From Glycera tridactyla (Eukaryota), in NCBI GenBank assembly GCA_965644265.1, contig OZ286462.1, positions 23,436,001 to 23,500,000 on the forward strand: a DNA stretch of 64,000 bases, written 5' to 3'. Made by a program: the position numbers and the translations under genes. Below the pieces are notes generated by a model that saw only the letters and a list, made by a program, of their open reading frames with translations, did not search any database and was not told the origin of the DNA. Shown in pieces: positions 10,870 through 61,796 of the stretch (position 1 is the stretch's first letter; the number at the start of each line of letters is the position of its first letter).

Positions 10870-11373
10870 CTGTAACAGAAACACAAAGGTTTGGTTAACT
10901 TTGGTCCTCATTGATTCATCGATATCTCCTCAATCTTTTCTTCACGAAGTCATTTATGACAGAGGATTACCCCAAGCAAGCATTCAAATAGGGAAGACGA
11001 CTCTGGGAAGAAACCCTCAGAAATGAACATGAAGTATGAATATCTGATTCCCCACTTTGAATATTTTGAGTTGAGTGCCGATTTGATGGAACTAAAGAGG
11101 GTACAGCCACTTGAAACCACCCACATCAATCTTCTATTTCATGCTATCAGTGATGTATCTAATATTTTAAGGAAAAAAACTCAAGGAGTACCTCACAAAA
11201 TATGAATTACCAAATGATGACAGAGAGGGGGGGGGGGGGGGGGGTTGGAAGGATTCTAAAATCAGGCCCTGAGTTTAAAAAACACATGACACTGAAAATA
11301 CTGTACAATGAAACATGTATACAGAAATCACCCATGAGAATGTGAGAAAGTGACGGAGAGGTGATTAATAGTA

Positions 11374-11549
11374 CAGTGAAACCTGCAAAGAAAGACCGTG
11401 CCAAATGTCACCAAAATGCAGTCTCCCAAGAGAGGTTATCTCTTATTAGAGGTATATTTGACTATGTCAAATAGAACTGCTATCCTGGAAAAGTGGTCTC
11501 CCATCAGAGGTGGTCTTTCATTGGGGGTCTCTCATCACAGGCTTCACCA
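11374..11549. mobile_element. TA-flanked MITE, family A (Tc1/mariner-pogo type ends)
   Basis: CAGTGAAACCTG...CAGGCTTCAC ends; internal GGTCTC/GAGGTATATTTGACTATGTCAAATAG core shared with other copies. Confidence 0.7.
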
Positions 11550-12139
11550 TATATAATACTACAGCAGCGATAAATCGCTGGGTATCAGATTATCAAGAAT
11601 AACTAGAGATTATAGTTGTTTGTTTATGGTCAGCTGAGAAGCATCCTGGCTGTTCATTGCTCTCACCTTCCTACTAGGAAAGTGGCGCCATCATCAACTT
11701 GTGGCAGAACTAGTCAACACATTCCAGCCACCCAGCATAATGCACTCATACACTATTTCTGGATTAGAGTTTCAAAATAGATCCCAAAGTCAGAGCAAAG
11801 GCCACAAGTTTGCTATAGTAATTTCATGTGTAAAAACACTATAGCAAAAAGTAACTGGTCCTTTAAGAGCAGGTTCAATAACGCACTCATGATCTTTCAT
11901 AAAGCCTAGATTTTAGGATCTTCCTGAATGCATTAGGATACATGTACTTCCTAAAGTAACTTATGATCAATGTGGCTTACCATGATAAGCACATCATAGC
12001 TTTTGCTATTTTGATGAACTAATTTTTCAACAGCTTCTCAAAGTTATACTTGAAATCAGGAACTTATGACAGACTTCAGACAGTGAACCACACCTCAGAT
12101 CAAGTTGTTCACTAAGATATAAATGAGTTTCATTGAAAA

Positions 12140-12350: not shown

Positions 12351-12641
12351 TGTATTGTTCCTATCCTTGTTGATTTCTCATCAAAGCTCTTGCTGTACAG
12401 ATGAGATGAATGCCAATGGGTCTCTTCTATTTTCTAATTCTTCAAAGAGTACAGATGTATTTGAAAACCATCATGATCCAGTCTTAATTGCTTGTTCCTT
12501 CAATTCAAGGTCACTTCCAGTATGATGCCTAACCCTAGATGCCATGGTATCTTCAGAAAACCATAGCAACTGGGCAACCTTTCACAATCGGAGACATTGA
12601 ATCTCAGTCAATTCTATGGAACATAAGAGCTGAGTACTTAC

Positions 12642-14482
12642 TTGCGATCCATTGGATCCAAATGGTTTACTCTGTGACCTTGACAACGTCCATGATGACC
12701 TGAGTGATCGCCGCGGTGATGGCGGTGCACTACTTGTGTCTGAGGATTCTGATGAGATGCTCTTTCTGTCTGAGCTGCCGCCACCAAAGAGTGAACGAAG
12801 AGGGCTTGCAGCTCGTTCCGCCAGCTTGCCGAAGGAACTGTGTCGATGAAGTAGGGGACTAGACTTGGGGGACCCAAAACCCTTCGGTGACGAGCTCTGG
12901 GTAAATGTCTGTGAACGATTCACTGCCTTTGATGAACTTGAGTCACTCTCTGTTTCACTCTCATTATCTTGGCTATTACCAAGTTCAAATGTCAGTAACT
13001 TGCGCGTGAAAGACGGAGAACGATGCCGAGATGACAGTTTACCATCATCATCGGGGCTCTCTCCATTTACAGGTTCCTCTTCGCCCTTAGTCACACATTC
13101 TGGTTGAAATATCTCAGGCTCAGGTTCCGGGTTTGGAACGGTGTCCTCTTTATCAATTGTCCAATTCTTTTCACTGATTTCTGCTGCTTTCGCCAATATT
13201 TCTGTGCTCACACTCAGTGGTTTGGGCTTTTGTGGTGATCCACCGAATGTACTCAGTGCTTTGAGCTCAGCCTGTCGACGGGCTACTTTACTCTGGTTAT
13301 CTTTGACACTACCACCACGTCTATACACATGGATCTCTTCGGTTTTACTCTCTTGACTGCTCACACTGTCTTTGGGCATATCTGCCGAGTCACTTTTGCA
13401 CCGAACTATCTTACACAGTGTTGGGTCTGAACCAGAATGTGACTGAATCAGATTGACATAGTTTGATTTTCGATTATCAAGGGTTAACTGAGGATGCTCA
13501 TAACTTGGAGATGGGCTGTTACCTTCTCCATCAGTAGAGTTACTGCGACTGTGACCTACGGGGATGCTGCTGCGACGGGGCGGGGGTGGCGGAGGAATAC
13601 GAGAGCGTGAACCACTCAAACAGGCGGAACTGCCACTCAGCTGTTGGCTCAGATCTTTACCTCGATGAACGGGACTACTGTCAGCACTTTTGATATCGGT
13701 ATTACGTTGATAAATGTGGATGAATTTATCAATACTTGTCTGTGAATCAGAACTCTTGAGACTGGTGGCTGATCCTTCCATGGAACTGATTCTTTGTGGT
13801 GGTTGTGGCGGAGCAATTTTTTCAGTGTCATCAGAGGCCTGACTTGACTGTACAGGCCTTACAACAGCCCGTAACACTTCAGTACTTCCAGATTTTGGTG
13901 TCATGATGCGCTCGTTATGAAACTTGGCAATTAGTTCTGAGACATGTGGAGCATTTTCCATACTGGGTGACTTGATCTCTATCGGGGGAACTATTTTCAA
14001 CTCATCCATTTCGCCATTGGAAGAAGGTGGTGGTGGTATCACCCATTTCATATATTCATCCTCGAGTACAAGAGAATCTTCGGTAGCATCCCATGAGGCT
14101 GAATTAGAATCGGGTGGAGGTGGAAATGAGGCAGAGCTGCGACTGGATCGAATAGAGAGTGACGATGCTTGCATTTCTGGTGGAGGCGGTAAATCGTGTT
14201 GGTCAGGACTGTCGTGTGGCGGCGGTGGTACTGTTAAACTGGCAATCAATGCATCGATATCATCGGTCATCTGAGAGATGTACGGTTTATCCTCAACCAC
14301 ATTAGATAGCTTGCCACCCTCAGACATTGCATCCATCCAGTTCCCGGAAAGATCAACATTCTCTGAGGAGATGGTTTCATTTCCTGAGTCGGTCTCGCTG
14401 TCAACCCCACACTCACGTTCCAGATCACGCCGGTGAAGCTTCAAGGGATCGCCTGCACCAAGGTTCAGCCCTGTGCTAGAAC
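12642..14482 (-). CDS. FRMPD4: FRMPD4/Preso-like gene, large internal exon (1841 nt, disordered Pro/Ser-rich)
   Basis: Acceptor ttgtttttcag|GT (phase 1) and donor CAA|gtaagt (phase 0). Lies within the 641-aa ORF. Contains DSETDSGNETISSE, matching vertebrate FRMPD4 ESSSDSGNETNSSE as recalled. Confidence 0.88.
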
Positions 14483-15480
14483 CTGAAAAACAATATATCA
14501 CAATCAATTAATTGAGATTTTGCTTGGAATTTATTTGGAATAGTTACCTTTTGGGAAATGCCAAATATGTGGTCATTTAGTGCTCATTGATAGAATCATT
14601 TTCTTACCCATTTTACCTCAAATAGTTTCGTTAGATATCAATGATTCAATCCATAGATTCTCGCAAGAAACTTCTCACAGTTGGCTAAAAAATTTTAGGA
14701 TCTTCAGCTTATGATCAAATGAGTGATCTGTGGTATAGAAGCAAGAACCTATGACTTTGTCAAATCCAAGGGCGAGTTCACCCAGAGCAATATTATGAAT
14801 GCATTTGATGACCATGCATTCTTGCAATGGTCTATTAGATGGGACTGAGTGACTGAGCCAATAATTAACTGGATCTTATGTTCCAAGGTGAGGCAGTCCT
14901 TGGAGATTGGAGCCGTGGATGTGAAGTCTGAATAAGTTCACTTAGGAAATTGGCAAATGAGTGACAAAATTAGATTAAACAGCATCACCGGCTCGATGTA
15001 TCTCCGCAGGGTGGAATGATAAGGGAATTTTTGGGGCAGGATAAAACCTGATAGAAATTCACTTGCAGTACCACACTCCATAAGGAGAATATACATTTCT
15101 TTCATACAAGACTAAATTACTTTGCATATGCAACTGCAAGTAAAACAACAACCAGCAGGAAGAGGAACGGAAAAGCTTCCATACAGCAAGTGAATATTTA
15201 GTGAATGACTAGATAGAATACCTGCATTCATGACCATCATTGAATGTATGCACTAGCATGAACTAAGCATATTCACCACCTGGATCCTCATAGATTCAAA
15301 TCTAAAATGCTGACTGCATCTATAACTATTTGCCCATGATTTGATCTTTCAAGTCAATTATTTGACAGTCCTGAATGTTTGAATTCACCATAGACTACAC
15401 AACCTACTGTCTGTCTGTCTATCTGTCTGTCTGTCTGCCTGTCTGTCTGTTTATCAGCCTCTGATTTGCATGATACATAC

Positions 15481-22085: not shown

Positions 22086-23001
22086 CTACAATGATATCAG
22101 TGATTTCAATTGACAGAAAGCTCCATTCACTGCCACCATCGCTGCAGCCACTACCACCATCGCCACCATGCCACCACCACCTCATAGGAGAATAATTTTA
22201 AAACGAGAGGATGACCATAGTCCATTCAATTGAAGGATCTGATTCTAAAAATGGGCATTCCTAACATGAACAGACTATACCACGCACCCTCGTCAGATAA
22301 GTGGAGTAGGTGAATCCATGTCGGGCATCACAGCCTGAATCCACACCGATTGTCATGAACAGCAAACATGATTTGTTGGTTGGATGGTGCCAGACATGCC
22401 TCATCTCTATACACACACCACCGACATCACCCCTGGGATGCAACAGAAATATGACGACCATGGAGAAAAAATATGAGTTGATAAAAAGTCAGTGAGAGCT
22501 AGGCAATATGACTTTCCGATATGACTATCTTGGGTGGTTCAAGTTGGTAAGTGAGGATGTGAAGAGCTCAGTCAACAATGAGAGTCGTATTGTTTTAATA
22601 TTGACTGTGGGTGTATTATCACTAGGTTAACTGATAAGGTAGACAAAGGGCTTTCCAGCAAGACTGTCACTTGTGTACTCTTGAAATGTAACCAACATCT
22701 TGTGGAGAGGAGGTACACTCTTAGATAGTCTATGTATATTTGTGTTTATCAATCTTTATAAAACAATCCTTCTCAAAAAGTAGAATTTTTGCATATAAAT
22801 TAACCCTCATTTTTGCTCTAATTTAACAGGGTATAGTCAGTAAAGAAATACCATGGAACCTGTGATAAGTGACTCCTTGTTGTGAAACCACCTATTCAGA
22901 GAGATTGCTTTCAATAAACCCCTTTTCTATCTGACATAATTGAACATATAGACCTGCAACAAGAAACCACCTGCTTTGTAAGACCACTCTGCCATGATGT
23001 A

Positions 23002-23178
23002 CAGTGAAATCAGTGACAAGCAACCACCCTAAATGTTGCCAAAAAGTGGTCTCTCAAAAGAGATGGTCTCTCGTTGGAGGTATATTTGATTATGTCAAAT
23101 AGAAAAGCTGCCCTGGAAATGCGGTCTCCAGTTGGAGGTGGTCTCCTATCAGCGGGTGTTTTGTTGAAGGTTTCACTG
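23002..23178. mobile_element. MITE, family A
   Basis: TA|CAGTGAAA...TTTCACTG|TA with the family A core. Confidence 0.72.
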
Positions 23179-26159
23179 TATAGGACACTCTTTCATCATG
23201 AGTTCCATTCGTTGTGAAGACAAACAGATGAAATTTTCAATATTGGTCACCCATCTGAGTCTGAACCCCTTACACCAATGGACAACAATGCAGTATAATG
23301 GAGAAGCTTGATGATTTGCTCTCGCCTGACCATTACTTGTAGCATATTTTCTTCCAGCTGTCATGAGATCATGCCAGGGTCCATCTAGCTCATTCTGTAT
23401 TACATCAATCAAATACATACATCTCCATAATCTGAGAAATGCAGGATGCTGTTGCCATGGCAGCCAAGTAGCAGGTGGTAGAGACAGCATCTGTGGCCAC
23501 ATAGTCTTCATAACCTAGGTCCAGTCTGTCCGTGTGTCGTCTTGTCTCATCTCGTAACATCAACGGGCAAGCCATGTTGGCGGATGTCACATCAACATAT
23601 CGTAGTATGATAAGTGTTGGTATAGCACGACCAGTCTCCTCTGTCTTGGTTAGCAACCAATATCACTCCCAATGTTATGACTATGGCCTGCCATGGATCT
23701 ATATCATCATCATCTATACTCCAGATCACCCACACACTAAATAATATATACTAAGAATTGCCAACTTTGAAACCATGAGCAACCAAATAAGTACAACTTG
23801 AACCCACAGAATAAGGATGAAGGCTCAAATGCCCAGCAATTTACATGAATATCTTGCCAAGGGAAATGACTGATTCAAAACCACAGGCTGATGCTCTCAA
23901 AATCTGCTGAATCTACTCCCAGTTTGGTGACAACACAATAAATCCCGGTTCATGGCATGGGGACAGATGATATAACTTTCCAATTGGATTCAATCGTTCC
24001 ATCCATCCTGCGAGATTCTTGGTTGTGACCAGATTTTGTAATATCACAGGAAGTAATGAGCATTTGCTGGAGTGAAGAATACAAGTCAAGTTCAAGCCCC
24101 CTTCTGGAAGTCAGAAAAAGGGGATTTCATATAAATTTTCATACTAGACATGCTTGTAATTCTCATACCTTCTCCATTCTTCCTCATATTTTTTTCCTCT
24201 CTTGTTGAGGTGTTTCAGTGCATGATGAACTGGCATGATATTTTTATGGATTTTCCCAGTACAAAAAGTTGTCTTTGCATCTGCATTGACCTTCATACAT
24301 GTTGCATGCTGAATATCCTGGTACAGCTCTACTGGCGGAAGGTAGCTTGATTTACATGCAACATTAAGGGTACTGGGTGCAGCATCAAAAAGCTCCAGGG
24401 ATATTAGTTCCTGCTCCGAAGTGTCATCTGACGGACATTACAGGGCAATCTCCCATTTGATGAGAAGCATGAGCCACACTGATAAACATTAAACAAGGTC
24501 ATCACAACCAGTCACATGTGACATATATCAGTTTTATTCAGGGTAGTGAAACCTGAAGTGGTGAAACAGTAATGAACACACACAGAAGGCATGGATGAAC
24601 TTCATTTAGTATAGTGAAACCCGCAACCATTTAGAGCATTCGACCAACAAGCACTTCTCATCGGTGTGCCTGCAGACTGTTCAGTTGAGCTAAAAGAAGA
24701 AACATTCGCCAATTCCCCCATCAAATATTCTTTATTCTTAGAGTCTGAGAGAAGTATGGGGACCATGTTACCATTACAAAACATTAGCCCTTGCAACTGG
24801 ACACCGTACGGTTATCATGTTATCAGACACTAACTTGGTACCAGTGTTATACTGGATACAATACTGGCCCAGCCTCAAATATATCTTAGGTCATTCATAT
24901 GTGAAAATCAAACCAAACTTCAGTGGGAGGTAGGATTTTTTTCTGGTTGTCAGAAAGACTGTAATGGTAGCTGGTCATATCATCACTTTCATAAGGTTGA
25001 GTTGCAAATTGTGCTTCCAAACATTTTTTGAATAAGTTTGAGTAAAGCCTGCTGAAATGATGAGGAACCTATCATTTCGTCTGTATATGCCAATGTGATG
25101 AGTATGAGTGTGTATGGGTGACTGCATGCACACATTTGTGTGTAATACAGTCCAACCTATTTGAGAGACCATCTCTATTCAGAGACCACCTGCCTACAAA
25201 AGCCACTCTATGACTGTGATAAGTATCTCTACAATAAAGAACTTCTCCACGCTGTCTATGAAGACCACTTTTGTATGTAACCTAGGAATGTTTGTGTGGC
25301 TTACTGTACTCAAAACATTCAGACTTCAGACTAGTGATGGGCTGATGTTCGACTATAGTCAATGTCGTTTCGATAGCTCCAACAAATCAAATATTCGAAT
25401 GCCAAGTGAATATGTTTGATTCATCTAAATCTGAGCCTGCCTGGATTTATTGCTCTCATAAGCACCTCTATCCCACTACACATGTGTATTTTGATAGTGG
25501 ATCATCCACATCTGACAACTGCATCAGTTCACCTTGTGATTTCTCTTATCATTTGTGTGAGAAAATTCCAAAATCCCCTTATATAGAAAGTGGTCGAACT
25601 TGCAAAGGAAGCCTATACAATAAATAGGAGCTAGATAGAAGAATTTGCCCATAAAAGTATGTTGGTCGAAAATATGGTAGAACTCAAACATTGTTTGAAG
25701 TTCGTTTGGTTTTGAAAATCAAACTTCAAACATGAAAAACAAATCAAATCCCAACACTACTTCAGACATTAGCGAAGCTTCCTGAATGGGTAGCAATAGC
25801 AGGGTGTGATGGGTTGGGTTGAAGTGTGCTTATCTAGCCCAAGAGGTACCTCCTTCAAGGTATGCTGATCATAGTTAGACTGTAGGACATAGATTATCCT
25901 GCTATAATCCATGATTGGATTAAAGGTGATGGCTTAGCTGCTTCATGACCAGGCTAATGGCATGGTATAAAGCATGATTCTGGCTCATGTGTGTGTATTT
26001 TATGCGGCAATAACCACATAGATGCTCCTCCACCTCGGATTAATGCTACACTGATAGTCAAACTTCCCCCTACTGAGACTCTCTGTTATTATGTCCTGTA
26101 GATCACAAATGTGTGATCGTCATTACTTATTTCTCACCAATTCTTTGTCTTTATCATGG

Positions 26160-35665: not shown

Positions 35666-35763
35666 TTGTTTGTTCATTTGGTTGTTTTAACTGATAGATT
35701 TTAATTCGGCCTAGAATCACTCTCAGGGACTGGGTAGATCTGATCTCCTCATTGCTGCTGTCA

Positions 35764-35940
35764 TAGTGAAACCTGCAATCCGAGACTGTCCTAAATGTCA
35801 CCGAAAAGTAGTCTCTAGAAATATGTGGTCACTCGTCAGAGGTATATCCGATTATGCCGAATAAAAAAGCTGCCCTGAAAAAGTGGTCATCTGTCAGAGG
35901 CGGTCTCTTGTTTGGGGGTCTCTCGTTGTAGGCCTCACTG
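35764..35940. mobile_element. MITE, family A
   Basis: TAGTGAAACCTGC...GGCCTCACTG with a diverged family A core. Confidence 0.65.
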
Positions 35941-38046: not shown

Positions 38047-39229
38047 GGCAGTATGAGATGCTCCAAACATGGGCTTGGGCATTCAACACATTTCTTGGAC
38101 CTGCTACTTGTGTATCACCTCACTGACATGAATCAAAACAAAATGTGTATAGAGCCAGGGCCAGATATCATGAAACCATGAGAGCTGAGCAACACTACAT
38201 TGTTAGGGCTTGCTTCATAGCTGCTCACCATGCATACCTTTTCATAGAACTCAGTGGCAGAGCAGTGATGTGTGGCCTTTTAAAAGATAAGGGAAACCCT
38301 GGGATATAGATCCAAATACACAAAATGACTCCAGTCATAAATTGTATAAAAGGTATGTTCAATTCATTCGACTTGAATGAGTTCATATAAGTTAACCAGA
38401 ATCATGGACGATACCTGGATGGCCACTTGTATGAGCTTAATGTTTTTGAACAGGCAAGAATTTTGTAGCAGTTGTCACACAGTACCAGTGGGCAGTAGTT
38501 TTATGGATTAGTGGTGTTAAACAGGAAGTTAATCACACAAAAGGGAAAAGTCAGTAGAACATGTGCAAGAAATTCCAGAATATTAGATGGAAATCTCTTA
38601 AACAATTACATGTATATCTGCTTTGGGCAACTTTGAATGTAACTTGGGGATATTTCTACAATGTTTTTCTGTCAGTCTCACGCCTGTATTCTCTATTCAT
38701 AAGGTTGCAATTTTGGGAGAAAATTGGTCATGGATTACAGCAATATTTGGTTCACCAATTCATGGGAGAATATTACAGAGGTACAGCACATTGAAAGAGC
38801 ACACCTGAAGATTATGAATTGGCTTTGTAGAGGAATCACAGAAAGAAATAAGAAAACTCGGCAAATCTATGGAGGGAGTACAAAAAGTTGATGCCTGGAC
38901 ATGGAACACATGACTCACCACTATCTGAAATAAATACGAAAATAATTTTTTAATGTGCTCAGGAATTGGTTGAGGAATTTGTTAGCATGAGCGCCCCCCC
39001 CCCCCCCCCCCCCCCCTCCCCCACCTGTCACTCCACATTGTTGATGATGACCTCATTTGTTGAATCAAAATACTTGATGCTGCATTATCTTGATATGTAT
39101 GGAAAGTGGTTGGTTTAAAACTTATTCTCCCTGCATGTCTCCAAAATGAGAGGCATGGCCATGAATATAAATGGAGAAAAACATTCAATTCATGGATCAT
39201 GTTCATGAACTATTTCATGAAATATTGAA

Positions 39230-39655
39230 CCCACTTGTGAATTTGAGTAACTTGATATAATTTTGCACATAAACTCGTCATTCAATTATAAAGTTGATGT
39301 GACTAATCAAAGCAATGGATTCGTGCCATTGCCAGAGAAAGACCAAGGAGAATATTCTTCAGTAATACTTATGGGAACCACAGTAGAATCATTTCATTCC
39401 ATGCACAACTGGCAGATTTGAATATCACATTGCATGTCTAATTTATAAAAGTCAAAAAGATCTAACACCCATGTCTATCAACATTATTTCAGTGATGAAT
39501 CGGAACTTGAATATCTCAAACAGACGGCTGGGTTTTAGTACAAAAGCATTCAGCAACCAGGGTGCAAGCTTATGGAACACCTGAAACCTAGAAATCAAAA
39601 ACTCACCGATCATAACATCTTTTGAAAGAAATTGCAGAAAGAAATTATTTTCACA
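39230..39655 (+). mobile_element. Degenerate 3' fragment of a LINE related to the 46.6-49.9 kb element
   Basis: Translates to GRFEYHIACLIYKSQKDL...NRRLGFSTKAFSNQGASLWNT*NLEIKNSPIITSFERNCRKKLF, which aligns by eye with the intact ORF2 C-terminus (DRFKYQAACLIFKSKNDM...NRRLGISTRAFSYQGAKVWNNL...). Confidence 0.8.
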
Positions 39656-43894: not shown

Positions 43895-44050
43895 ACAATA
43901 TCAGGGGCATCCCCATATATGAAAGTGGACCCCCTCTCTTTTGCCAGGATAATCCCCATATTTGGTAGTGGCCCCCTCTCTCCTATACCAAGGTAATCCC
44001 CATATCTGGACATGGTTCTCTTACCTAAACGAAGGTAATCGCCATATGCC
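43895..44050. repeat. Diverged ~45-bp tandem repeat, ~4 copies
   Basis: GGTAATCCCCATAT-like core recurs four times. Confidence 0.7.
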
Positions 44051-46512
44051 AGAGATGCAACTAAATCCCAGTGGATGGTGGAGTGGGCGGGAGGGTATAT
44101 CATGACTGCAGGCATATTCTATGCAATCATTCTCCTAATTTCTCATCCTATTCTTGAAATGTCACTGATGATACCTGTGCAGCCAAATATAGGTATATCT
44201 TGGTATTTTGGGATATGAAGTGACATGATGTGTCGGGAATAGAACCATCCACCCACAATGTTATTCAATCTTGCTGCTGAATCAGTATTTTCATCAAAGT
44301 AGATGTATCGCAGCTAAATATAGATCCAAAGGGGAGCAGACCTTCAATGATCCCCATGGAAAAAGGTGACCATGATCAGATACATCTTATCCTTCATATC
44401 ATTACCGTCACCAGAATCCAAGGGTTTTCTTTAACCATTTTCAAATGAATGTGTTTTTCATGTCTTGTCCATGGAATATAACACAGAATTTCCTATGCCA
44501 ACCAGTGATAGCAAATGACCGGTACAGATATTCCAGCAATCCTACCAGAAATCGTGGGTACATTTGGCTCTGTGATGTTCAAGCATCTGAATTCAAACTG
44601 GGAGTAGGATAGTCAGTACATGCTAGTCCCAGATTCAAACTTTTAACCCTTGCCAGACCTACCAGACCTCCTTCATTCACAGCTGATTTGCTGGGAAACA
44701 GTCTGAAGAAGTATGGGTCAGCGGCAAAAAGAAAAAGAATACAGAGCACTACAACAATGGTGACTAAATCTCACTCTTATCCTGAATATAATTATTAGGG
44801 GTAGGGAATGCATTCTTCCTACAAGAAAACCTGTGACATTTACTGTTGAATCGTGCAAGTGACGGCAGTTTCAACGGTGATGTTTCTGGGCAATGGTGGT
44901 GGTTCACATTGGAGCAAGGGTGGAGTCAGGTTGGATTTTCATTTTTGTTTTCATCAGTCTCCTTGAATTTCAATACCGCAAGACAGGATTGCTTGTTTAC
45001 CGAGCAATGATAGAAAAGCCTTATCGGGGAACTGCTTGTTTTTCACACGAGATTGCTCATTGCAGACTCAGCCTGATTGTCAAATCTAGCACATCTTCTA
45101 TTTCCAGATAGTGAACACTCAGCATATCACCCTGACAATAGATTCCTTAGTCAATGATGAACCAAGATCCTACTATTCTACTTTTTAATGTATTCTTTCT
45201 TGCAATTATCCATTCCAGGGGGGAGTATGGAGCACAATTTGTAAGAATGTGACTTTTTTCAACTAAAATGAATGCCTGTGTGAGAACATGAATCATTAAT
45301 TGGTACTACCATCCCATGGAAGCCCCATCTTATAAGATGAGATTTTATTTGTCTGCTGTGATCATTCATTTTGCTTAGGTGAATTGTTAGCCTGGGCTGC
45401 CTTGTAACATGGCCTATGGCCATTACATACATACAGTGAGACCTTTCAGAGCAATTCTTACAATCAATAGGCTATTGCAAAGAATCTGAGAGTGGCATCC
45501 ATATATGATGCTCAGCGCTGCTGGTGTGGGATTCCTCACCCTACCATGGGAAGTAGGTAATGAATATTGATGATTTACCACCTCCATCCCATCCACCTGC
45601 TGGCCGGCGATCAACAGCTGGCAGGCCATCTCACTCTGCATCCCGAATGCCACCAATGATGCTGAATAATGCATCTCTGGGCAACCACTCATCATCAATA
45701 GATGCAGGTGCCACACCCACGCCATCTTAGTTGGACCCGGAGACAGATCATTCCGAGTTCATATCAAATTTTGGACTTCAACCCAGGTCATCGATACAAT
45801 AGGGTGAAACCATGATGGAAGAACCTCTGAAGACAGACCACCTCTGATGGAAGACCGCTTATCACAGACAGGTTGTGGGGAAGTTGTTCACTGTATGAAG
45901 TACTGTTGTGGTCATGAGCCTGGAAAGTATTTGTGGGCGGGTGGCCTTTGTATAGATAAAGGCAATCACTCAAAAAGATTCAACTGCATCCTTACATCCT
46001 GAGTCAAATCAACTCAGTGTGTGCAATCGGAAGAGGCCTAATATAAGGATTCAGTCAAGGATATGTTGAATAATTGGAAAAACCTTCCTGTACAGCACTG
46101 TCCTGCACTGGGTCAGGGTTGGTGGGAAAGAGGATTTTAATGTCAGCAGGTAGATTTCAATATTTATCTATTATACCATGATGGCCAGTGGATGGCTGCT
46201 GTTGGACTATAAAGACTATCATCGCTCCTTAAGAATGTGTTTGAGGCAGAAGCTTGAAAGGCTGGTTAAGAAAATTAATTGTAATACTAGGTACTTTGTA
46301 ATGAGAGATGAGAGTATAAACACTCCTTCCAGCAGTCATGTGGCCTTCTAACCTAAGCACATATTTAACGCCAATAAGGGTGAGCTGGCACTCTGGCATT
46401 CAGTGGTTAGGTATAAACCACTTGTACGGAATTTGAAACATGCAGTATAAGAGGTGAGCATAATTATGGTCTTATCCAGAATCCAATCAGTGTAGCAAGG
46501 GCTACTATATCA

Positions 46513-46608
46513 GGGAATGAACAATGATGGCCCGGGAGCTGCTATTTTATGCAATGAACAATGATGGCTCGAGAGCTACTATTTCATGGAATGAACAATG
46601 ATGGCTTG
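46513..46608. repeat. ~39-bp tandem repeat (2.5 copies) abutting the LINE 5' junction
   Basis: AATGAACAATGATGGC occurs three times. Confidence 0.85.
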
Positions 46609-46609
46609 A

Positions 46610-49609
46610 TCTCAATCAGTACCCGTAGATATTGAAATCACTTCTATAATTGCGGACATCAAAATCATTTCCAAAATTTCGGATGGACACCATGGAAGAG
46701 ACATTACTTGTGATGGGGATGTCGAAAAAAATCCAGGACCTTGTGACACATCAAGTCTAGGTGATGTCTTAAGAAGCAAAGGAATAACCTTGGGGCACTT
46801 GAACATCAGAAGTCTGTTGCCACATTTGGATGATGTCAAGATAATGCTCTCGCAGTCAGATATTGATATCCTAACGCTGTCTGAAACTTGGTTGAAGTCA
46901 AACATAATTGATGCCGAATTGATAATTCCAGGTTATAATCTCTACAGATGTGACAGGGATTCTTCTATTGGAAGTGGAAGGGGGGGTGGAGTTGGAATAT
47001 ATGTCAAGTCAAAATACAATGTGACCTTTCATGACAACATGTGTATCTCGCTGCCGGACCTAGAAACAGCCTGGATAGAACTGAAACTACCATCTACTAG
47101 GAAGATTTTTGTAGGCTCTTGCTATAGACCTCCATCTGGTAATGTCACAAATGCTGTCAGTCTATTGAAAAATTGTATATCAAAATTTGGTACGAGGGCC
47201 GAAATTCATGTGTATGGAGATTTCAACATAGATTGGAATAAGAAAAACGACTATGGGTATAAAAGGTTAAAGTGTATGTCCGATGAATTTGGTTTATTGC
47301 AGTACATCAAGGGGAACACACGAGTTTCCGAGAACTTATCTACATGTATTGATCTCCTTTTTTGCAACCGACCAGAAGTCTGTCTCAACAGTCATATTGT
47401 TCCAGTTGGCATCAGTGATCATGAACTTGTAGTTCTTGCCAGAAAGTTGGTAAAATGTCATGGAACAGTGAGCAAAATTTGGGCTAGAAGTTTCCGGCGT
47501 TTTGATGAACAGGCATTTTTGAATGATTTAAGAAATACATCTTTCCGCGAAATTTGGTTAATGTCAGATGTGAATATAGCTTGGGATTTCTTCCAAAGTG
47601 TGTTTATTACTATTTTGGACCTACATGCTCCTTATAAGTGGATGCAGTTCAGAGAAAAGAAATGCAACTGGATCACTGCCGAGTATATATCACTAATCCA
47701 TGACAGAGAATATTTCAGACGCAGGGCCAATAGAAATAGAACTCCAGACAACCTTGATAGAGCAAAATCAGTCAGGAACCAGGCCAATATACTGAGAAAG
47801 CACTTGAAGAAACAGTATATCTCTTCTGCAATCTCTGAAAACAAGAACAACCCCACAAATCTTTGGAAAATACTGAAAAATTTGGTTCCAACTTCTGGTT
47901 CGACTCAATCTTTACCATGTGAAATAAATGGAAAATCAGATTTATTCGACTGTGCTCAGGAGCTCAACGAGAAGTTTGCTAATGTGGGACCAATTCTGGC
48001 AAGTAAAATAGTTCCTCCAGTTGATTTTATAGATGATAGAATAGAAGCGGCACCAGAGAGATTCAATTTTTCTGCTATATCCAGCAAATTTGTTGAAGAT
48101 GAATTGAAGCAGATCCCTACCAACAAAGCAACTGGACTTGATGGTATCAATGCTCGAATCCTAAAAATATCCTCCGAGATCATAGCACCAATTATGGCCA
48201 GGATATTCAACCTGAGTATTGAAACAAACTCATTCCCAAACTCTTTTAAGATAGCGAAGATAACTGCATTACATAAGAGTGGATCAACTAGTGACCCGAA
48301 TAACTATAGACCTATTTCGATTTTGCCTGTTTGTAGTAAGATTCTAGAACGAGCAGCACAAAAGCAAGTCATGGAATTTGTTTCTAGAAATAATCTCTTG
48401 GTAGAACACCAGTCAGGTTTCAGAAAATACCACTCGACATCTACTTGTCTCATATCATTTTTGGAAAAAATATATGACAATATCGACAAAGGTAAAATAA
48501 CTGGAATTGTTTTTCTTGACTTTCGAAAAGCTTTCGATACGGTGGATCATTTGAGGATGTTGGAGAAATTGTCAAAAATGGGGTTTGGTGAAAATGCTGT
48601 GTGCTGGTTCAGAAGTTACTTGTCCAATAGGTATCAACAAACAGCATGGGGAAGTGTTCTATCCAATGCTGAGTTGGTCAGATGTGGGGTGCCACAAGGC
48701 TCGATTCTGGGACCGATGATGTTTGTATTATACATTAATGATTTGACAAAATATCTTGAGTATTGTACCCCATCGCTATACGCAGATGATACTGCATTAT
48801 TGTGCCAATCTACTAACATGTCTGAACTAGAGTGTTATATGCAATCTGATCTGGGTGTGGTTGAAGACTGGCTGGCCATGAACAAACTGTCTTTAAATGT
48901 ATCAAAAACAAAGAGTATGGTCATCACCACTAACAGACGAAATATGCAAATTGTGGACCTGCATTTATATATGAATCAACAAATGATTGAATCAGTTCAA
49001 GAATTCAAGTATCTGGGTGTTATTTTGGATATCAGACTAGATTTTTGCAAGCACGTTGATAACACCTGTAACAAAGTCAAACAACGTCTAGGTGCCTTAG
49101 CCAGGGCAAGACCATACCTAGATCAGAATATATCCTTACAATTATATAAGTCTCTGGTGCTCCCGATTATTGAATACTGTGGATTGCTCCTTCTTGGTAC
49201 TTCAGTAGAGAATGTGATGAAGTTGCAAGTTTGTCAGAATAGAGGGTGTAGAATCATTTTATTACGCAAACTGGGAGATAGCACAGCAGAAATGCATCAA
49301 ATACTAGAGCTACCAAAGATTATTGACAGATTCAAGTATCAGGCAGCTTGTCTAATCTTCAAGAGTAAAAATGACATGTGTCCACAGTACATTGGAAATA
49401 TTTTTAGACCAGTTAATACAGTGCATAGATATAATACTACGTCATCCAGTGGCCAAAACCTATATTTAACAAATAGGAGGTTAGGGATTAGTACCAGAGC
49501 TTTTAGCTATCAGGGTGCCAAGGTCTGGAATAATCTCAACGTAGAATGTAAAGAGGCACCTACTATTGGATCCTTCAAGCGACTGGTCAAGGAACAGCTT
49601 TTTCCATGA
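46610..49609 (+). CDS. LINE ORF2: 2A-like peptide, apurinic endonuclease and reverse transcriptase
   Basis: Frame open from 46610 (TGA at 46607). APE motifs GHLNIRSL, LSETWL, GSCYRPP, GDFNID, SDHELV. RT motifs NYRPISIL, FLDFRKAFDTVDH, GVPQGSILGP, YADDT, KYLGVILD. No internal stops. Confidence 0.95.
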   Translation, partial: SQSVPVDIEITSIIADIKIISKISDGHHGRDITCDGDVEKNPGPCDTSSLGDVLRSKGITLGHLNIRSLLPHLDDVKIMLSQSDIDILTLSETWLKSNIIDAELIIPGYNLYRCDRDSSIGSGRGGGVGIYVKSKYNVTFHDNMCISLPDLETAWIELKLPSTRKIFVGSCYRPPSGNVTNAVSLLKNCISKFGTRAEIHVYGDFNIDWNKKNDYGYKRLKCMSDEFGLLQYIKGNTRVSENLSTCIDLLFCNRPEVCLNSHIVPVGISDHELVVLARKLVKCHGTVSKIWARSFRRFDEQAFLNDLRNTSFREIWLMSDVNIAWDFFQSVFITILDLHAPYKWMQFREKKCNWITAEYISLIHDREYFRRRANRNRTPDNLDRAKSVRNQANILRKHLKKQYISSAISENKNNPTNLWKILKNLVPTSGSTQSLPCEINGKSDLFDCAQELNEKFANVGPILASKIVPPVDFIDDRIEAAPERFNFSAISSKFVEDELKQIPTNKATGLDGINARILKISSEIIAPIMARIFNLSIETNSFPNSFKIAKITALHKSGSTSDPNNYRPISILPVCSKILERAAQKQVMEFVSRNNLLVEHQSGFRKYHSTSTCLISFLEKIYDNIDKGKITGIVFLDFRKAFDTVDHLRMLEKLSKMGFGENAVCWFRSYLSNRYQQTAWGSVLSNAELVRCGVPQGSILGPMMFVLYINDLTKYLEYCTPSLYADDTALLCQSTNMSELECYMQSDLGVVEDWLAMNKLSLNVSKTKSMVITTNRRNMQIVDLHLYMNQQMIESVQEFKYLGVILDIRLDFCKHVDNTCNKVKQRLGALARARPYLDQNISLQLYKSLVLPIIEYCGLLLLGTSVENVMKLQVCQNRGCRIILLRKLGDSTAEMHQILELPKIIDRFKYQAACLIFKSKNDMCPQYIGNIFRPVNTVHRYNTTSSSGQNLYLTNRRLGISTRAFSYQGAKVWNNLNVECKEAPTIGSFKRLVKEQLFP

Positions 49610-49892
49610 ATGAGTCAGTAGTAGAGTATCAATACTGAGTCCATCTGCTGTGTTGAGTATAACGTCTGAGATAGTAAGTAACAAAAGCATGTGCATGATT
49701 GTTCTTATGATATTTTATTATTGCATGAGTTGTCTCTTCCAGGTGTACATTTTATATTATGTTTACTAGCGATAATGCATGTCAGGAAACAGGGTGTCAC
49801 ATGACATCGGGTTCTTACACTTGTGTATACTTGTAGTGCCATACCTGTATAATGAACTGTCAAATAAATAAATAAATAAATAAATAAATAAA
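46618..49892 (+). mobile_element. Non-LTR retrotransposon (CR1/L2 group LINE), 5'-truncated, intact ORF2, 3' UTR and (AAAT)n tail
   Basis: APE-RT ORF, ~250 nt 3' UTR, (AAAT)n tail at 49862-49892. Flanks atctcaatc (46609-46617) and atctcattc after the tail form a possible imperfect TSD. Confidence 0.93.
46682..46741 (+). other. 2A/StopGo ribosomal-skipping motif DGHHGRDITCDGDVEKNPG|P
   Basis: Manual in-frame translation upstream of the ORF-track start gives an exact D-V-E-x-N-P-G-P consensus at 46718-46741. The final Pro lies 17 codons before the TTG (46790) that begins LGHLNIRS of the endonuclease. Confidence 0.85.
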
Positions 49893-50212
49893 TCTCATTC
49901 TCAATCTCAATCTCACACTGGTGGGAATGTGATCTTTCTTCAAGAAAACACGTGACATTTACTGAGATGGTTAGATCCTCCTAGTGACAGCAGCGACGGC
50001 GTTCCGAGGTCGTACATCAGCAAGCGCCCCGTCGTATATCAGAGCGCCACCGAAGCATTATCGCTGCAACCTGCATCCCACCTCCGCCCATCCATCTCCA
50101 TTAAACGCTGCTATCTAATTATCAGAGATAATGCACTAAGCTTCATTGCGCTGACAAATAATAGTGGTTACAACCGACTCAAATTTGAGATCTTTGTGAT
50201 AAAATTGAAATA

Positions 50213-50397
50213 TAGTGGAACCTGTAATATGAGACCCTTCTAACGGGAGACTCCCTCCACCAGGAGACTCCCTCCACTGGGAGACTGCTTTCTCGTGGCC
50301 AATTTTCTTTTGGACATATACATCTGATAAGGAACCACCTGTTTTGAGAGACTGCATTTGGGTAACATTTAAAGTTGCCTTGTCACAGGATTCACTG
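50213..50397. mobile_element. MITE, family A-like (opposite orientation)
   Basis: TA|TAGTGGAACCTG...CAGGATTCACTG|TA with GGAGAC subrepeats. Confidence 0.65.
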
Positions 50398-52204
50398 TAT
50401 TTTCAGGATTTAAACCCTTTCTTGAGTGTTGGGGATAAAGCAATTTATTACGACTATCATATAAGTGTCAAGAAATGCAGAATTATGTCCCTCAGTGGAA
50501 TAGACTGAGAAAGGCATTCAGGATCGGAATCCATTAGTCCATTCAAAGATGCTATAGGTGCACTAAATACATGTTTTCCCAGATACCCTGGGCAATTGGG
50601 AGCTCTGAGCTCATATCCTCAGCTCTCACTTTACCGGTGAAATGGATCCATGGAGACTGAGGTACAACCATATTCCATTCTGCTGATTATGCTCTCAGAA
50701 GATTGGATTGCTCTCTTGGTTTCTAAATCTAAACATAGCGGATTCTAGTCATGGAGTGTCTTCATTCAAAGCCCTGATTGCGAATTTGAGCTCAAGTGGA
50801 TCATCCGCCTCAAGCTAAAGTCTGTCCAATTGTGACGGCTATGTTTTTCAAACTAACATCACAAATTTGCATCAGATTGTAATGAGAGTCAGGGACAGAT
50901 TTTATCTACATCTCCGGCGACTCAAAATGTGGTAACGATGAAGTTTATCCACTTCACCTCAGCACCGAAAAAAATGTAGAATAAATGCTTGTTTCGCTGC
51001 AAGTGCAGTGCCTGTATCTCCATTGTTTCACATACTAAAATTTGGTGATACTGCCAGCGATTCGTCATTGAAATTCAATAAAATGAGAGTATGTCCTCTT
51101 CAAAGGTATGCATTGTATTCAAGTTCAACGATTGCTGAAAGACCTAAACAATCAACTCATGTTATTGAAACTCAAATTGGACAAAAAATGGTGAATTTAG
51201 AGTGTGTAACATACCCACCACGTTTGGATTTGAGAGTTTATGAACAGCCAGAGTGTCCTAATTCTACTGCACACCAACACATGTTTGCTGTTCCATCACT
51301 TCTTCATACTCTACACACTTGTCTAAATATTTATCTCAATATTTTTCAAGACTCACTGAATACTGCATGATGTGCTAATATCATTCAAAACAAATAATTC
51401 CAATAGATAACTATTCTGGATGGGATGATTTACTCATGAAATATCCCATAAAGTGATGTGACAATAGACTCAATAATGACTAACATGATGGATTCTGTAA
51501 TTGCCTCAGTGATAATTGCCAGAGTAATAACCGACATTACAGCAGGGAATGGGAAAATGGTCTTGGGAATCATTTATAGCATGAATGGGAATAACGTCTA
51601 AATAATCAATTATATCAGCGGCAGAATTGGTCAATATTGCCGCAGAATAGGTGCTAGGCCATCTGTGACAGCTAGTGTGCGAGATGCTATGGAAGGAATC
51701 GAGAGGGGTTGGATGATGATGATGACAGTGGGGGGGAGTGTGTATGCTGGGAGGGGGGTTTGGAGGGCCGGTAAGCACATGCCCTCAAAGCCTCAACTGG
51801 CCAGTCAGTGTACATGCTAAAATGCTATTTATCGTCTAACATGGGTGACATTGGCTGATCCTAGGATCAATACTGAGATGGGGGGGGGGGAGGAGGGGAG
51901 AGTGAGTGTAAATGATGCGGGTGCACACGCATGCATGCTGGGCCTCATTATGAGAAACGCAACACATGGCCACCTCCCAGGTTCCATTCACCAAGGGACA
52001 GGATGGAGAAGCAACCCTAGCAAATGTGACTCAGTATCGAAACAAGATGGTCCCACATTATGTTGATGCCATAAACAGGAAGTAGTGATTATTGGATGAA
52101 AATACCACATCCTATGAGATGAGTTTGCATTGCGTTTTCATGAGGCCGAAGGTCAAGTAATTCCATTTGGTGCCATAATCATGTTTGCCTCTCGTATGAG
52201 GTGG

Positions 52205-56830: not shown

Positions 56831-58714
56831 TCCCATTCAGCATCCTTCACCTCCGATGACGATGCCCATTCATCATCACTCATCCTTCGTTTCATTCAAG
56901 CACAGCACCATTCCAAAATTGGAATGCACACACAAATCCCACCTTTCATTCTAATCACAATGATGGCTGATTTCTGAACAGCTGAAATCCCAATGTTTGA
57001 ACACTGAATCAAAAGCAAACATTTGAAGAAAAAGTGCTGTCATTGGTTGGGTGGATATGACATGCAAACCCTCGTAAGTAACAGCATCACAATTGAGAGA
57101 GATAATCAGAAATAATGACATGCAATGTTAATTAAATTTTGGTAGATGGATATGTCATCAGGAGCCAGGCATTTAGAGCAAACCAAAAAAACGGGATTAT
57201 ACCTTCAAAATAGCTCAAGTAGTCATGAAAATCTTTTTTTTTTCTATAATTTACGGACTGAGAAACAGATCCTGCATGTCCTGAACTTGATGCAATGATT
57301 CAAAATGAGAACAACACAATTGAAGTAAACTCACAATGCTTTTGGTTGATCATGAAAGATATGGTTACAAGTATAATATGCGCTTTAGCCAAATATGCTA
57401 CGGAAAATGTTGTTTCAGAACCAATGCAGAATCCATAGAGAAAACTGTGGTGGAATTACCAGAAAGGGTGCTGCTTTGGGTTTGCTCTCTCAAGAATATT
57501 TTCCAAATTGTCAGCAACTCAAAATCTTGTTATTTTAGACAAAATCATAGAGGACCATTTTCTCCAAATCACTTGACCAACTCCTGCCTCCTCCACATAG
57601 ACATCAAAATCACTGTTGAAAAATCCACAATCATACATAAATCAATTTTGTCCAAAAATGCAATCAACAGATTCTGGCAATGATTCAGGAGATTGACCCT
57701 GACTTTCCTTCAAGCAAATTTGGCAAAAAGATGTAAATTTCTTCAACTGGATGATAAGAGTCATGGTCAGTTGGCTAATGGCTTGAGCTTCCCAGCACCT
57801 GGTATTTATATCTGATGGCATCAGGAAGGCATACATATCTATCTATGATCATATACCCATAAGAAGTATAAGGCTATCTGGCGGGAAGCTGGCGAGCATC
57901 TCTAAGGAATGATGTACACCGATGAGGTAGGCTCCTTATGGTGAGCAAAATCTGGACAATCATCGATTCTTCTTCTATACAACAAATGAGTCTCCTCCTC
58001 TGTGAGCCTTTCCCCCTCCCTCTACCCACAGGCCCTTCAAGTGCCATCACCTCATATGGCCTAACTCAACATCATCAATTTTGACAGAAAAAAACACACA
58101 TTATCCTTCTTCCCACCTGACTGCAGAGTTCTATTCAAGCTGTCAACCCTTATAATGATCATCATTATAATCATTGTATTGATTCGAACAGATAATCACA
58201 TCTGAGCTACATTCATAGTCAAAATGGTATCTGGGAAGCCAACAAGCAAGTGGGGTATGTGTGTTGAAAATCATGTCTCCCTTCTTCATGGGTCTGAAAT
58301 TTGAAGTGCCCGAAACCCCGACCTGGTATTTCACTGATGACTTGTCCAACTTTGCCTTGGTATCATCTTTTTCACTTATGATTAATTTCCCATGTTCACT
58401 GCATTGGTACTAAAATGTGGCACTTTTGAGAGCTGACATGCTGGATTTCTCTCACCCAGTTTCCTGCCAAAATTCAAACTTGAAATTCCTAATTTTACAC
58501 CTTTCAACACCATTATCACTTGAATGTGTCCAACATCAATCCCGTGGCACAGGCATCATAATACAGCACCTCATAATGGTGTGATGTGGAGATAAAAGAG
58601 ATATCCTAAACTTGAGAAAAACTGGTAAATTTCTGGGACAAATCTAAAAGAAATATGCAACAGGTTCACCATCCTTCAAAGCAAGCCATATCTCATATAA
58701 TCAAAGATTCAATA

Positions 58715-58891
58715 CAGTAAAACCTGTCTTGGGAGACCACCCCAATGCCAACGAAAAGTGGTCCCTCAAGACAGGTGGTCTCTCATTGAAGGTATATTTG
58801 ACTATGTCAAATAGAGAAGAGCCGACGAAGAGCGGTCTCCCATTAGAGGGTGGTCTCCCAAAAGAGGGGTCTCCCAAGACAGGTTTCACTG
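58715..58891. mobile_element. MITE, family A, near-consensus copy
   Basis: TA|CAGTAAAACCTGTCTTGGGAGACC...GGTCTCCCAAGACAGGTTTCACTG|TA; ~24 bp TIRs with one mismatch. Confidence 0.85.
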
Positions 58892-60313
58892 TAGTATGAA
58901 GCGACCTATAGAGTATGGAGAAATAATTGAAAATGGTGTCGAAGAGTCGACATGTTTTTGGTGAGGCATCAATCTAATTTCATTGCATAGCATTTGCGAT
59001 GAATGCTGTATGCAGTACGAGATGCATTGTTCACAACCTTCAAACTGAGATATTGCAGAAAAAAGATGTCATATTGGATCTGATGTTCTATTGAATACGA
59101 ATGGTTACTGAGTGAGCAGGTATTTGGCCTGAATCTGGAAGGATTGTATTGTATTTGTTCATCTCACATGATATCATTACCTTCACCTGGATGAATAAAG
59201 ATAATATCATACTGTGACATTTGATGGGATTCAATCTTCTGAAATTGCTACCAATAACTGATGATGAATTGGAGCCTATATCAGCATATTTTGCAAATAT
59301 TGCAGTCTTCACTGAGGCAGCCATTGAACAGCCAGTTAGATTTGATATACAGTTAGACCAGTCCTAAATAGTCAGTGTACTAAGCAGCCATCTATCTTAA
59401 GCAGTTAACTTCCACAGGAGCTTTTCCGCAATAATTCTTGTGCTGTCTTTGCCAATAAAAATTCTGTCATTGCCCCTGTCATATCATAGACATTATCATC
59501 CTCTACAGTCACCTGTCTGGAGAAGCCTGATTTTGCAGCCCCTCAAAGAGGAGGCCTGGATCTGGTTCAGCTACACATCTGTTTCATTCACCTGCTGTTT
59601 TCTTTATTCATATTTCTTATAGAAGATCAGTCAAACAACTGCTTTGCGGAAGAAACAGGGATGCAATAGAACAACGCAAATTCTGTGTTTCCATCTGATT
59701 TTCTGACCAGTGAGTGGGTCACTCTGGCCCAATAACCAGAAATACCATGGGCTATATTGAACGATGATGGCCCATCTTCCATTTTCCCATGGATCGCAGC
59801 AATGAAGAAACTGGACATGCTGACCCACAGCGGAAAATATTGGTGGGCTAATAGTTGGGTAATACAGCGAAAATGGTGGTCTGTGCGCAACAACAGTTTG
59901 AAGGGCCAGTGATAATACAATATCGCCATCTTTTACCACTCCACAAATGCCTGCAGGTATAATCAAGTGGGTAGTGTAGTGGTTCTTGAAGTGGATATTA
60001 TGAAGTTAGCATGCTAAACCGCCCACATCTGCATCAGTCACAGCAATAGGTGGGGGAAATAACTGAATTATCTCACCCATGTATCAGGTGGCTGGAGTCA
60101 TGCTTGCACTCCTAGTGGAGGGGGTTGTGGCTTGTAAAGCTCGCTATATTGGGAGCTAGGGTTGGCAGCTGAGTACCGCTAGATTTATGGATGAATTCTA
60201 TATCAGAAGCGACAAGCACCACACACTATCATATTGATCCCCCTGACAACCTCCAACATCCCCACCTCATCCCCCTCAGGATTATCACACCTACTACCCT
60301 GTGTATTCAATTA

Positions 60314-60484
60314 CAGCGAAACCTGCCAACAGAGACCACCCTAATTGTCACTAAAAAGCGCTCTCTCAAAACTGGAGGTCTCAGGTTGGAGGTATATTTG
60401 ACTATGTCAAAAAGCTGCTCTGAAAAAGTGGTCTTATGTCAGAATTGGTCTGTCGTCAAGGAGTCTCTTGTCACAGGTTTCACT
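60314..60484. mobile_element. MITE, family A
   Basis: TA|CAGCGAAACCTG...CAGGTTTCAC with the family A core. Confidence 0.7.
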
Positions 60485-61063
60485 ACCAATGATGTTTTTA
60501 ACCCCAGAGGACAATGCATCCTGTCGATCTAATTTGACTGTTCAGAGTGACTTGTAAGTCCTTATATGGTTAGAAAGGTGCCAGATATGCATTTTGGATA
60601 AAATAGTCCTTTCATCCATAAACACATGTTCATGAAGATATGTACCGGTTTTATCATCTCAGATTACAGAAGTGCACGTGAAATACCAGTTTCCTCTTAC
60701 AATTTAGGGATTCATTGAGGACTTGACCGATCATACTTTCAGTCACAGTGTATAATATGAGCTAATGCATCACTGCCTCTATATTCTTTTGTTGTAAATA
60801 TAAACAAAGGGTTGGTTTATTATGATGTCTATCAAAAGCTAGGCAATCTTGGTCTCTGACCCTCATCTCTTGATTGATAATCTCAGATTGATAATCACTA
60901 CATGTACATGCTTTTTGATTTGAAAGATGAATAATGGTTCTTATCATCAAGGCATCATGATATCACTGGTCATTACCAGCTTTCAAGTTGACATTTCATA
61001 ACTGAACAAACTGATTAAGTATTTACCTGATTCGCCATCAAGTATGGTGCTCTGTGTCAAATA

Positions 61064-61331: not shown

Positions 61332-61518
61332 TAGTGGTGAACTGTCACCTACTCTGAAAGTTAAGATCAGAGACCACTCAAATATCATCAAACTGTGGTC
61401 TGTCAAAAGCGGTGGTCTCTCATCACATGTATATCTATCATAGAAAAGCCACCCTGAGAAAATGGTCTCCTGTTGGAGTGGTCTCTCAACAGTGGGTCTC
61501 TCGTTGCAGTTTCCACTG
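61332..61518. mobile_element. MITE, family A, diverged
   Basis: GGTCTC subrepeats, right end TTTCCACTG|TA. Confidence 0.55.
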
Positions 61519-61796
61519 TACTACCACTTGACAACCTATCTGGTTACACATCATCATGTGTATAAGGTTTGTGAGAGTAACACTGCAGAGGACAGAGCAT
61601 GCTGCTTTCCTAGATCAGGAATACATATCATACAAAATCTTTTGGGTTTATGCATACTGATAAACCGACCAAGCAACCAACCAACCAATCAACCAACAAA
61701 CCAAGCTGTTCTCAACCATAAATGTTTTGGTGGATGACACAAGTTTGCAGGAAGGCCACAGCAAACTCCGCTCTCGGAACCTTCACAGGATGTAGC

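Follow-up and report, generated by a model that had tools for sequence, protein, structure and literature searches.

An RNA-virus-class StopGo (2A) context ahead of the endonuclease of a probably Crack-like LINE in Glycera tridactyla

StopGo (2A) motifs at the N-terminus of LINE-encoded enzymes are an established phenomenon. Odon 2013 (PMC3708506) describes approximately 50 2A-bearing elements in Rex1, L2, L2A, Crack, CR1 and Ingi; the initial annotation of the present locus likewise mentioned 2A-like motifs in trypanosome L1Tc and in CR1/L2-type LINEs of marine invertebrates. In these elements (Rex1, L2, L2A, Crack, CR1 and Ingi/L1Tc), a single frame has the 2A in its N-terminal region, in some of them directly before the APE endonuclease, which is followed by the reverse transcriptase (RT); the 2A is located about 40-80 aa from the initiating Met, usually without an ORF1, and 5' truncation is common. 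Several LINE 2As are active in reticulocyte lysate, many others with a largely canonical core are inactive, and in the Crack-clade 2As the key Glu is changed in all cases and activity is very weak or absent. The choice between a single ancestor and repeated acquisition of the LINE 2As was left undecided in that paper. Snell and Matreyek (PMC13405545) report 16 clusters of ORF2p 2As in 16 species, and Baral 2026 (10.64898/2026.09.24.754024) lists about 580 2As of RT elements, of which 7.4% are highly active; its RT-element set includes 330 class A contigs. The idea that ribosome falloff limits the amount of the LINE enzyme goes back to Odon and Luke. Neither Crack nor Daphne is a clean clade, according to PMC13343379.

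The sequence upstream of the core differs between 2As, and six classes of upstream hexapeptides, defined on RNA viruses, are distinguished in Li 2026 (PMC12846837). Motif 4 of this classification is DLTxDG, with the extended signature WV(R/K)DLTx[acidic]G. One wild-type example of this motif was almost 100% active, nearly all mutants of characteristic residues were close to dead, and more than 30 residues can be needed for full StopGo activity.

The locus analyzed here lies in a window of 64,000 nucleotides (the whole analyzed stretch of contig OZ286462.1, to which all positions refer). A single stop-to-stop ORF of 999 aa (46610-49609, plus strand) holds both an APE endonuclease domain (aa 64-271, 46799-47422; PF03372, E 7.3e-9; PF14529, E 7.9e-9) and an RT domain (aa 558-806, 48281-49027, with YADD at 48779; PF00078, E 1.6e-34). 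The stop codon (49607-49609) is followed by a 252-nt 3' untranslated region (49610-49861) and an (AAAT)8 tail (49862-49893), the final two letters of which overlap the 3' target-site duplication, and both the simple-repeat tail and the target-site duplication of a non-LTR insertion are present. The duplication consists of ATCTCAATC at 46609-46617 and ATCTCATTC at 49892-49900, which pair over 9 bp with one mismatch (8 of 9 identical). Such a pairing is weak evidence on its own, since random draws attained it in 57 of 400 stretches of 101 nt and in 6 of 400 stretches of 10 nt; it is strengthened by an empty-site paralogue of the host repeat that hosts the insertion (44753-44877, plus strand, outside the element), because the match of the 5' flank ends on the 9 nt that open the match of the 3' flank. 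Specifically, nhmmer aligned the 3' flank to 44767-44874 (E 4.9e-7), the 5' flank (46594-46617) is identical to 44753-44776 at 19 of 24 ungapped positions (a score also attained by 6 of 350 other tiles), and the two alignments have 9 nt of the empty site, 44768-44776, in common. The element is therefore delimited to 46618-49891, starting 100 nt 5' of the 2A core; it is an uninterrupted APE-type non-LTR retrotransposon copy that likely is 5'-truncated. The initial annotation had placed the feature at 46618-46789, the start of which coincides exactly with the 5' junction, and the peptide that it quoted overruns the end of this range (HLNIRS begins at 46796).

The region directly 5' of the insertion is occupied by a 37-bp tandem repeat (2.9 units, 46501-46606) with ATGATG in each unit; the end of its third unit shows homology with the 44753-44776 repeat. 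We considered a near-full-length element with a nonsense change (ATG ATG at 46598/46601, TGA at 46607; the second 37-bp unit has CGA at the position of this TGA) and rejected it, given that the empty site assigns 46594-46617 to the host flank. An ORF1 upstream of the LINE was likewise rejected, as stops are present in all three frames of 46200-46609; none of the 268 best homologues (see below) matched 44000-46600, and a Pfam scan of two short upstream frames yielded no meaningful match. The host repeat that carries the insertion is short and dispersed, with copies at 44746-44877 and 49892-50000, one being the empty site and the other the insertion site. The window further contains an abundant, possibly MITE-like short repeat family on both strands (45800-45990, 50200-50405, 11367-11554, 22842-23304, 35757-35937, 58711-58895, 60309-60497 and 61377-61532), as well as two large open frames on the minus strand (9889-10929 and 12585-14507) that probably represent exons of a gene of the host; in the former, a talin-like rod domain (PF21865) is matched weakly, at a sub-threshold E of 0.002. 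The frames may resemble FRMPD/FAK-type C-termini.

The 2A motif precedes the endonuclease in frame, as the initial annotation stated: the core DVEKNPGP (aa 37-44, 46718-46741) lies inside the ORF with APE and RT, and fits the StopGo pattern (D/G/C/N)(V/I)ExNPGP, the predicted skip falling after Gly (46736-46738) and before Pro (46739-46741). No other NPGP occurs in any of the six reading frames of the window, and 6.5e-5 occurrences of D[VI]ExNPGP are expected there by chance from residue frequencies. With APE and RT in one ORF and the 2A upstream of APE, the copy shares the layout of the elements of Odon 2013. The core is preceded by the hexapeptide DITCDG (46700-46717) and by an Ile-rich leader remnant of 27 in-frame codons (46619-46699), which includes nine near-cognate Ile codons and lacks an in-frame AUG. 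There is no in-frame AUG ahead of APE anywhere in the element (from 46618 onward). In agreement with the initial annotation, the first in-frame ATG (46844, aa 79) is located within the APE match, and a complete APE-containing protein cannot start there, since translation from Met79 would drop HLN (aa 63-65), which forms the first strand of APE. The annotation took this lack of an AUG for a sign of translational recoding; in light of the empty site, 5' truncation is the likely best explanation, and the missing AUG therefore provides no evidence for recoding. On its own, the copy is probably unable to make the whole APE-RT. An overlapping +1 frame that opens at ATG 46683 was judged incidental, its four ATGs arising where a GAT or CAT codon of the 2A frame precedes a G. 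A Pfam scan of the leader gave no match, and the APE part, when compared with PDB sequences, had a single match attributable to chance (E 0.88).

The upstream context belongs to the DLTxDG class rather than to the Leu-rich type. By pattern comparison with the text of Li 2026 (PMC12846837), as opposed to its FIMO matrix, DITCDG agrees with the motif 4 hexapeptide, including the Asp at p12, with one conservative change (Leu to Ile); the R-D-x-T-x-D-G series and the following D-V-E-x-N-P-G-P are in the same register in both. The extended WV(R/K) signature is absent: the corresponding HGR keeps the Arg and lacks the Trp and the Val. Motif 4 was defined on RNA viruses; the present copy is chromosomal, with His-Gly in place of Trp-Val, Ile in place of Leu and Lys in place of the usual Ser. 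The comparison with viral 2As called for in the initial annotation accordingly supports its suggestion of a viral RDLTxDGDVE-like context, although its attribution to insect picorna-like viruses is narrower than the class of Li 2026, which pertains to RNA viruses generally. The 'A/B chimera' W(V/I)RDL-GDVESNPGP of Baral 2026 (10.64898/2026.09.24.754024) is a counterpart in the same register. As regards the classes described in Rao 2025 (PMC12338488), the GDVE...NPGP core of class A is present and its upstream Leu stretch is not (no Leu at -19 to -10); class B, our first guess, was rejected, the invariant Trp near -16, the EEGIE center and the Pro before N/H-PGP all being absent.

To place the motif among natural representatives of its class, we used a pattern scan of metagenome contigs, which gave 62 loci with 55 distinct motif-4 20-mers. 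At position -16, where the present copy has His, Trp is frequent (25 of the 55; W/Y/F in 35, non-Trp in 30), and Ile at -12, as found here, occurs in one of the 55. Gly -8, Asp -9, Asp -13, Thr -11 and Arg -14 of the copy are the commonest residues at their positions among these 20-mers; five of the six shared positions were fixed or narrowed by the search pattern, and Arg -14 (29 of 55) was free. By Pfam, 50 distinct motif-4 contexts comprised 8 with a viral RNA helicase, 2 more with a dsRNA-binding motif, 3 with APE downstream of the 2A (L007, E 8.4e-11; L033, E 1.7e-4, sub-threshold; L035, E 5.3e-8, in the next frame) and 37 uninformative ones; L012, L027 and L057 are APE-like by eye only. 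In these loci the 2A class is found directly ahead of the endonuclease, as in the present copy, but with long upstream frames and W or F at -16, where the copy has His. The 20-mer of L035 is identical to one that Snell and Matreyek (PMC13405545) tabulate as a skipping peptide of eukaryotic origin. None of the 62 loci was matched by the LINE protein (tblastn, E 1e-3). Hence motif 4 ahead of APE is not unique to this element and also occurs in unrelated lineages of the metagenomes. Seven loci (L007, L012, L027, L031, L033, L035 and L057) are non-LTR-like, with long upstream frames and a Trp/Phe motif-4 2A directly before the endonuclease, and one of them has, by eye, an OTU-like stretch in the upstream frame. 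Elsewhere in the same set, two back-to-back motif-4 2A peptides are located 21 residues apart (L045:596-1084:-), and L003, L042, L050 and L060 encode two such peptides apiece.

For comparison with LINE 2As we assembled 268 homologues, namely the best 120 of 167 matches to the whole protein and the best 150 of 23,692 matches to aa 1-300 (148 of them new). The named homologues belong to a fish, a crinoid, a hydrozoan and an insect, which together with the microsatellite-rich DNA points to an animal host, and the closest full-length one, among the best 120 of 167, is 36% identical. A 2A-like motif is present in 53 of the 268 best homologues, and in none of these 53 does a hexapeptide ending in DG precede the 2A; the comparison with LINE 2As that the initial annotation had proposed thus gives 0 of 53 for the DLTxDG class. 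The 50 2A-bearing homologues with a full upstream window have a Leu-rich helix there, with 4-9 L/I/V/F/M residues at -19 to -10, compared to a single such residue in the DITCDG context of the present copy. Anchoring 250 homologues on the Asn that is conserved in strand 1 of APE gave 132 that start with Met no more than 45 residues away (median 19), 61 that start further upstream without a 2A, 53 that have a 2A and 4 that are partial; these are the starts of called proteins, which may hide an upstream 2A. In 34 of the 53 cases, the 2A lies 7-38 residues ahead of this Asn. The 2A Pro of the present copy is 21 residues N-terminal of the Asn, close to the median of the Met starts, and therefore a product starting at Pro would match the usual N-terminus.

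The copy is a member of the CR1 group and, judging by its RT sequence, probably Crack-like. In one of the 51 supplement parts of Odon 2013, the RTs of Crack-7_BF, Crack-1_SP and Crack-1_PM are the most similar by eye among the rows compared, and a hand count gives 57 of 120 identical residues with Crack-7_BF; the likeness to Crack rests on this comparison by eye in that part and passages of the paper, as the rows of our RT tree include no clade-named references. In this quick tree (124 rows), the LINE protein groups with two Met-start proteins without a 2A (SH-aLRT 84, weak), within a group that is not resolved and also contains elements with Leu-rich 2As; one homologue in the tree (P0003) has a 2A motif under a broader pattern. 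The key Glu, changed in the Crack-clade 2As according to the text of Odon 2013, is kept in the present copy. Given that the arrangement of a 2A before APE is known, what differs at this locus is the virus-class upstream context in a putatively Crack-like LINE. No DLTxDG-class 2A from an animal LINE came up in the literature search; the supplements of Baral 2026 may contain such LINEs. Li 2026 alone had 'DLTxDG' among the papers listed, and DITCDGD had 0 matches in the supplements of Snell (4 files), Rao (4 files) and Li (2 files). The initial annotation suggested that the variant may be undescribed; its novelty is limited, since the same class precedes APE in unrelated elements.

A metagenome scan with the LINE protein for further motif-bearing copies gave 16 pattern matches, of which 0 were confirmed. 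Contigs that derive from three runs belonging to a single study (presumably RNA) span parts of the interval from 46758 to about 49900, with identities mostly below 99%; they begin at 46758, and 46000-46757, including the motif, is outside their coverage. Among the contig differences listed, 31 of 40 are at third codon positions and 33 of 40 are synonymous (206 further differences are unlisted), and therefore the lineage, which is about 5-10% diverged over the covered region (with the motif outside it), was under coding constraint; the contigs represent sister copies or the family of a related species. A decayed, internally deleted relative of the same lineage is present in the window at 38303-39650 (plus strand, about 60% DNA identity), without the 5' part and the 2A region; among 269 proteins, that of the LINE copy alone matched it (E 1e-4).

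Taken as a whole, we consider it somewhat probable that this is a CR1-group LINE with a leader-2A-APE-RT frame, likely 5'-truncated, in which the 2A is predicted to let some ribosomes release the leader and resume at Pro. Under this scenario, the 2A would be a family feature, and full-length members would be translated from an AUG further upstream that was lost in the present copy. The ribosome would stall with the 2A in the exit tunnel, free the leader at Gly43 and in part resume at Pro44, giving a 956-aa APE-RT with an N-terminal overhang like that of AUG-start relatives; skipping would likely be partial, the rest being drop-off or read-through, such that the 2A would set the N-terminus of the enzyme and also limit its amount. 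The exact canonical core and the class-typical upstream residues argue for skipping, and the position of the Pro, the layout known from the elements of Odon 2013 and the coding constraint on the lineage speak for the reading as a whole. Published analogues point both ways: the wild-type motif-4 example of Li 2026 was almost fully active, but of 22 DGD[VI]E rows in the table of Snell and Matreyek (PMC13405545), 3 were dropped (off-register or non-NPGP ends), and among the 19 in-register DGD[VI]ExNPGP 20-mers kept, by our own count, 0 of 11 without W/F at -16 fall in the skipping class (6 show falloff only and 5 no skipping), compared to 3 of 8 with W/F. These classes refer to 20-mers in human cells and were assigned by a model with 86% accuracy on the samples used to train it. 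Further points against are the His at -16 and the Ile at -12, given the effect of mutating characteristic residues in Li 2026, the very weak or absent activity of the Crack-clade 2As of Odon 2013 and the small share of highly active RT-element 2As in Baral 2026. By analogy, the Trp-less data lean against efficient skip-and-continue, and we put useful skip-and-continue by this 2A at about even odds.

An alternative that we regard as possible, with low confidence, is that the 2A is familial but inactive or causes falloff only, so that the enzyme would be an uncut leader-2A-APE-RT fusion, its level lowered at most. The lack of Trp at -16, the Ile at -12, the absence of a Leu stretch, the above result for the 11 comparable 20-mers and the inactivity of many near-canonical LINE 2As (Odon 2013, PMC3708506) are all compatible with this alternative. 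Conversely, the core is perfect in a lineage that, outside the motif, is diverged under coding constraint, the 30 natural motif-4 peptides without Trp at -16 make up more than half of the 55, and the published classes derive from 20-mers in human cells, and the stretch needed for full activity can exceed 30 residues (Li 2026, PMC12846837). It is improbable that the 5' 125-140 nt are foreign, that is, another RNA (e.g., of an RNA virus with a motif-4 2A) that was joined to one copy during reverse transcription and replaced an AUG start. The absence of the class from the 2A-bearing homologues, the short Met starts without a 2A in 28 of the 40 closest APE homologues, the two nearest neighbors without a 2A in the RT tree (weak, as noted) and the lack of any protein match at E 10 for residues 1-75 (among 30 candidates) or 1-90 (among 31 candidates) would fit such a join; it would, however, require a chance stop-free, in-frame junction exactly where LINE 2As or start codons are located, the GC content of the 5' segment (0.37) resembles that of the remaining ORF (0.38-0.39), and no viral protein (lengths up to 1749 aa covered) matches the leader. 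Slightly less probable still is a full-length copy with a very short 5' end, non-AUG initiation and a subsequent skip at the 2A: the ORF is intact, the target site is duplicated and the Ile codons of the leader could serve as near-cognate starts, but a 5' UTR or promoter would have no space, the 2A is preceded by about 50-240 residues in most homologues whose N-terminus is intact, and 5' truncation is common in such elements (Odon 2013, PMC3708506).

Beyond the reading of a leader-2A-APE-RT frame with partial skipping, it is a tentative possibility, well short of an even chance, that a Crack-like animal LINE lineage captured an RNA-virus-type (DLTxDG) StopGo independently of the Leu-rich 2As in related elements, placed at the site where sister elements have their AUG, with an active 2A making the N-terminus of the enzyme. 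Given that the phenomenon is already established, the gain would be modest unless activity and conservation in the family are demonstrated. The peptide is a natural Trp-less, Leu-less variant of motif 4 and as such would be useful for probing the upstream residues that StopGo needs. That one group of elements has differing 2A classes at a single site favors repeated gain or replacement of the 2A, RNA viruses being a possible source; if viral capture is true, the case would represent a datable transfer of a 2A from a virus to a LINE and a direct test of the choice between one origin and repeated acquisition posed by Odon.
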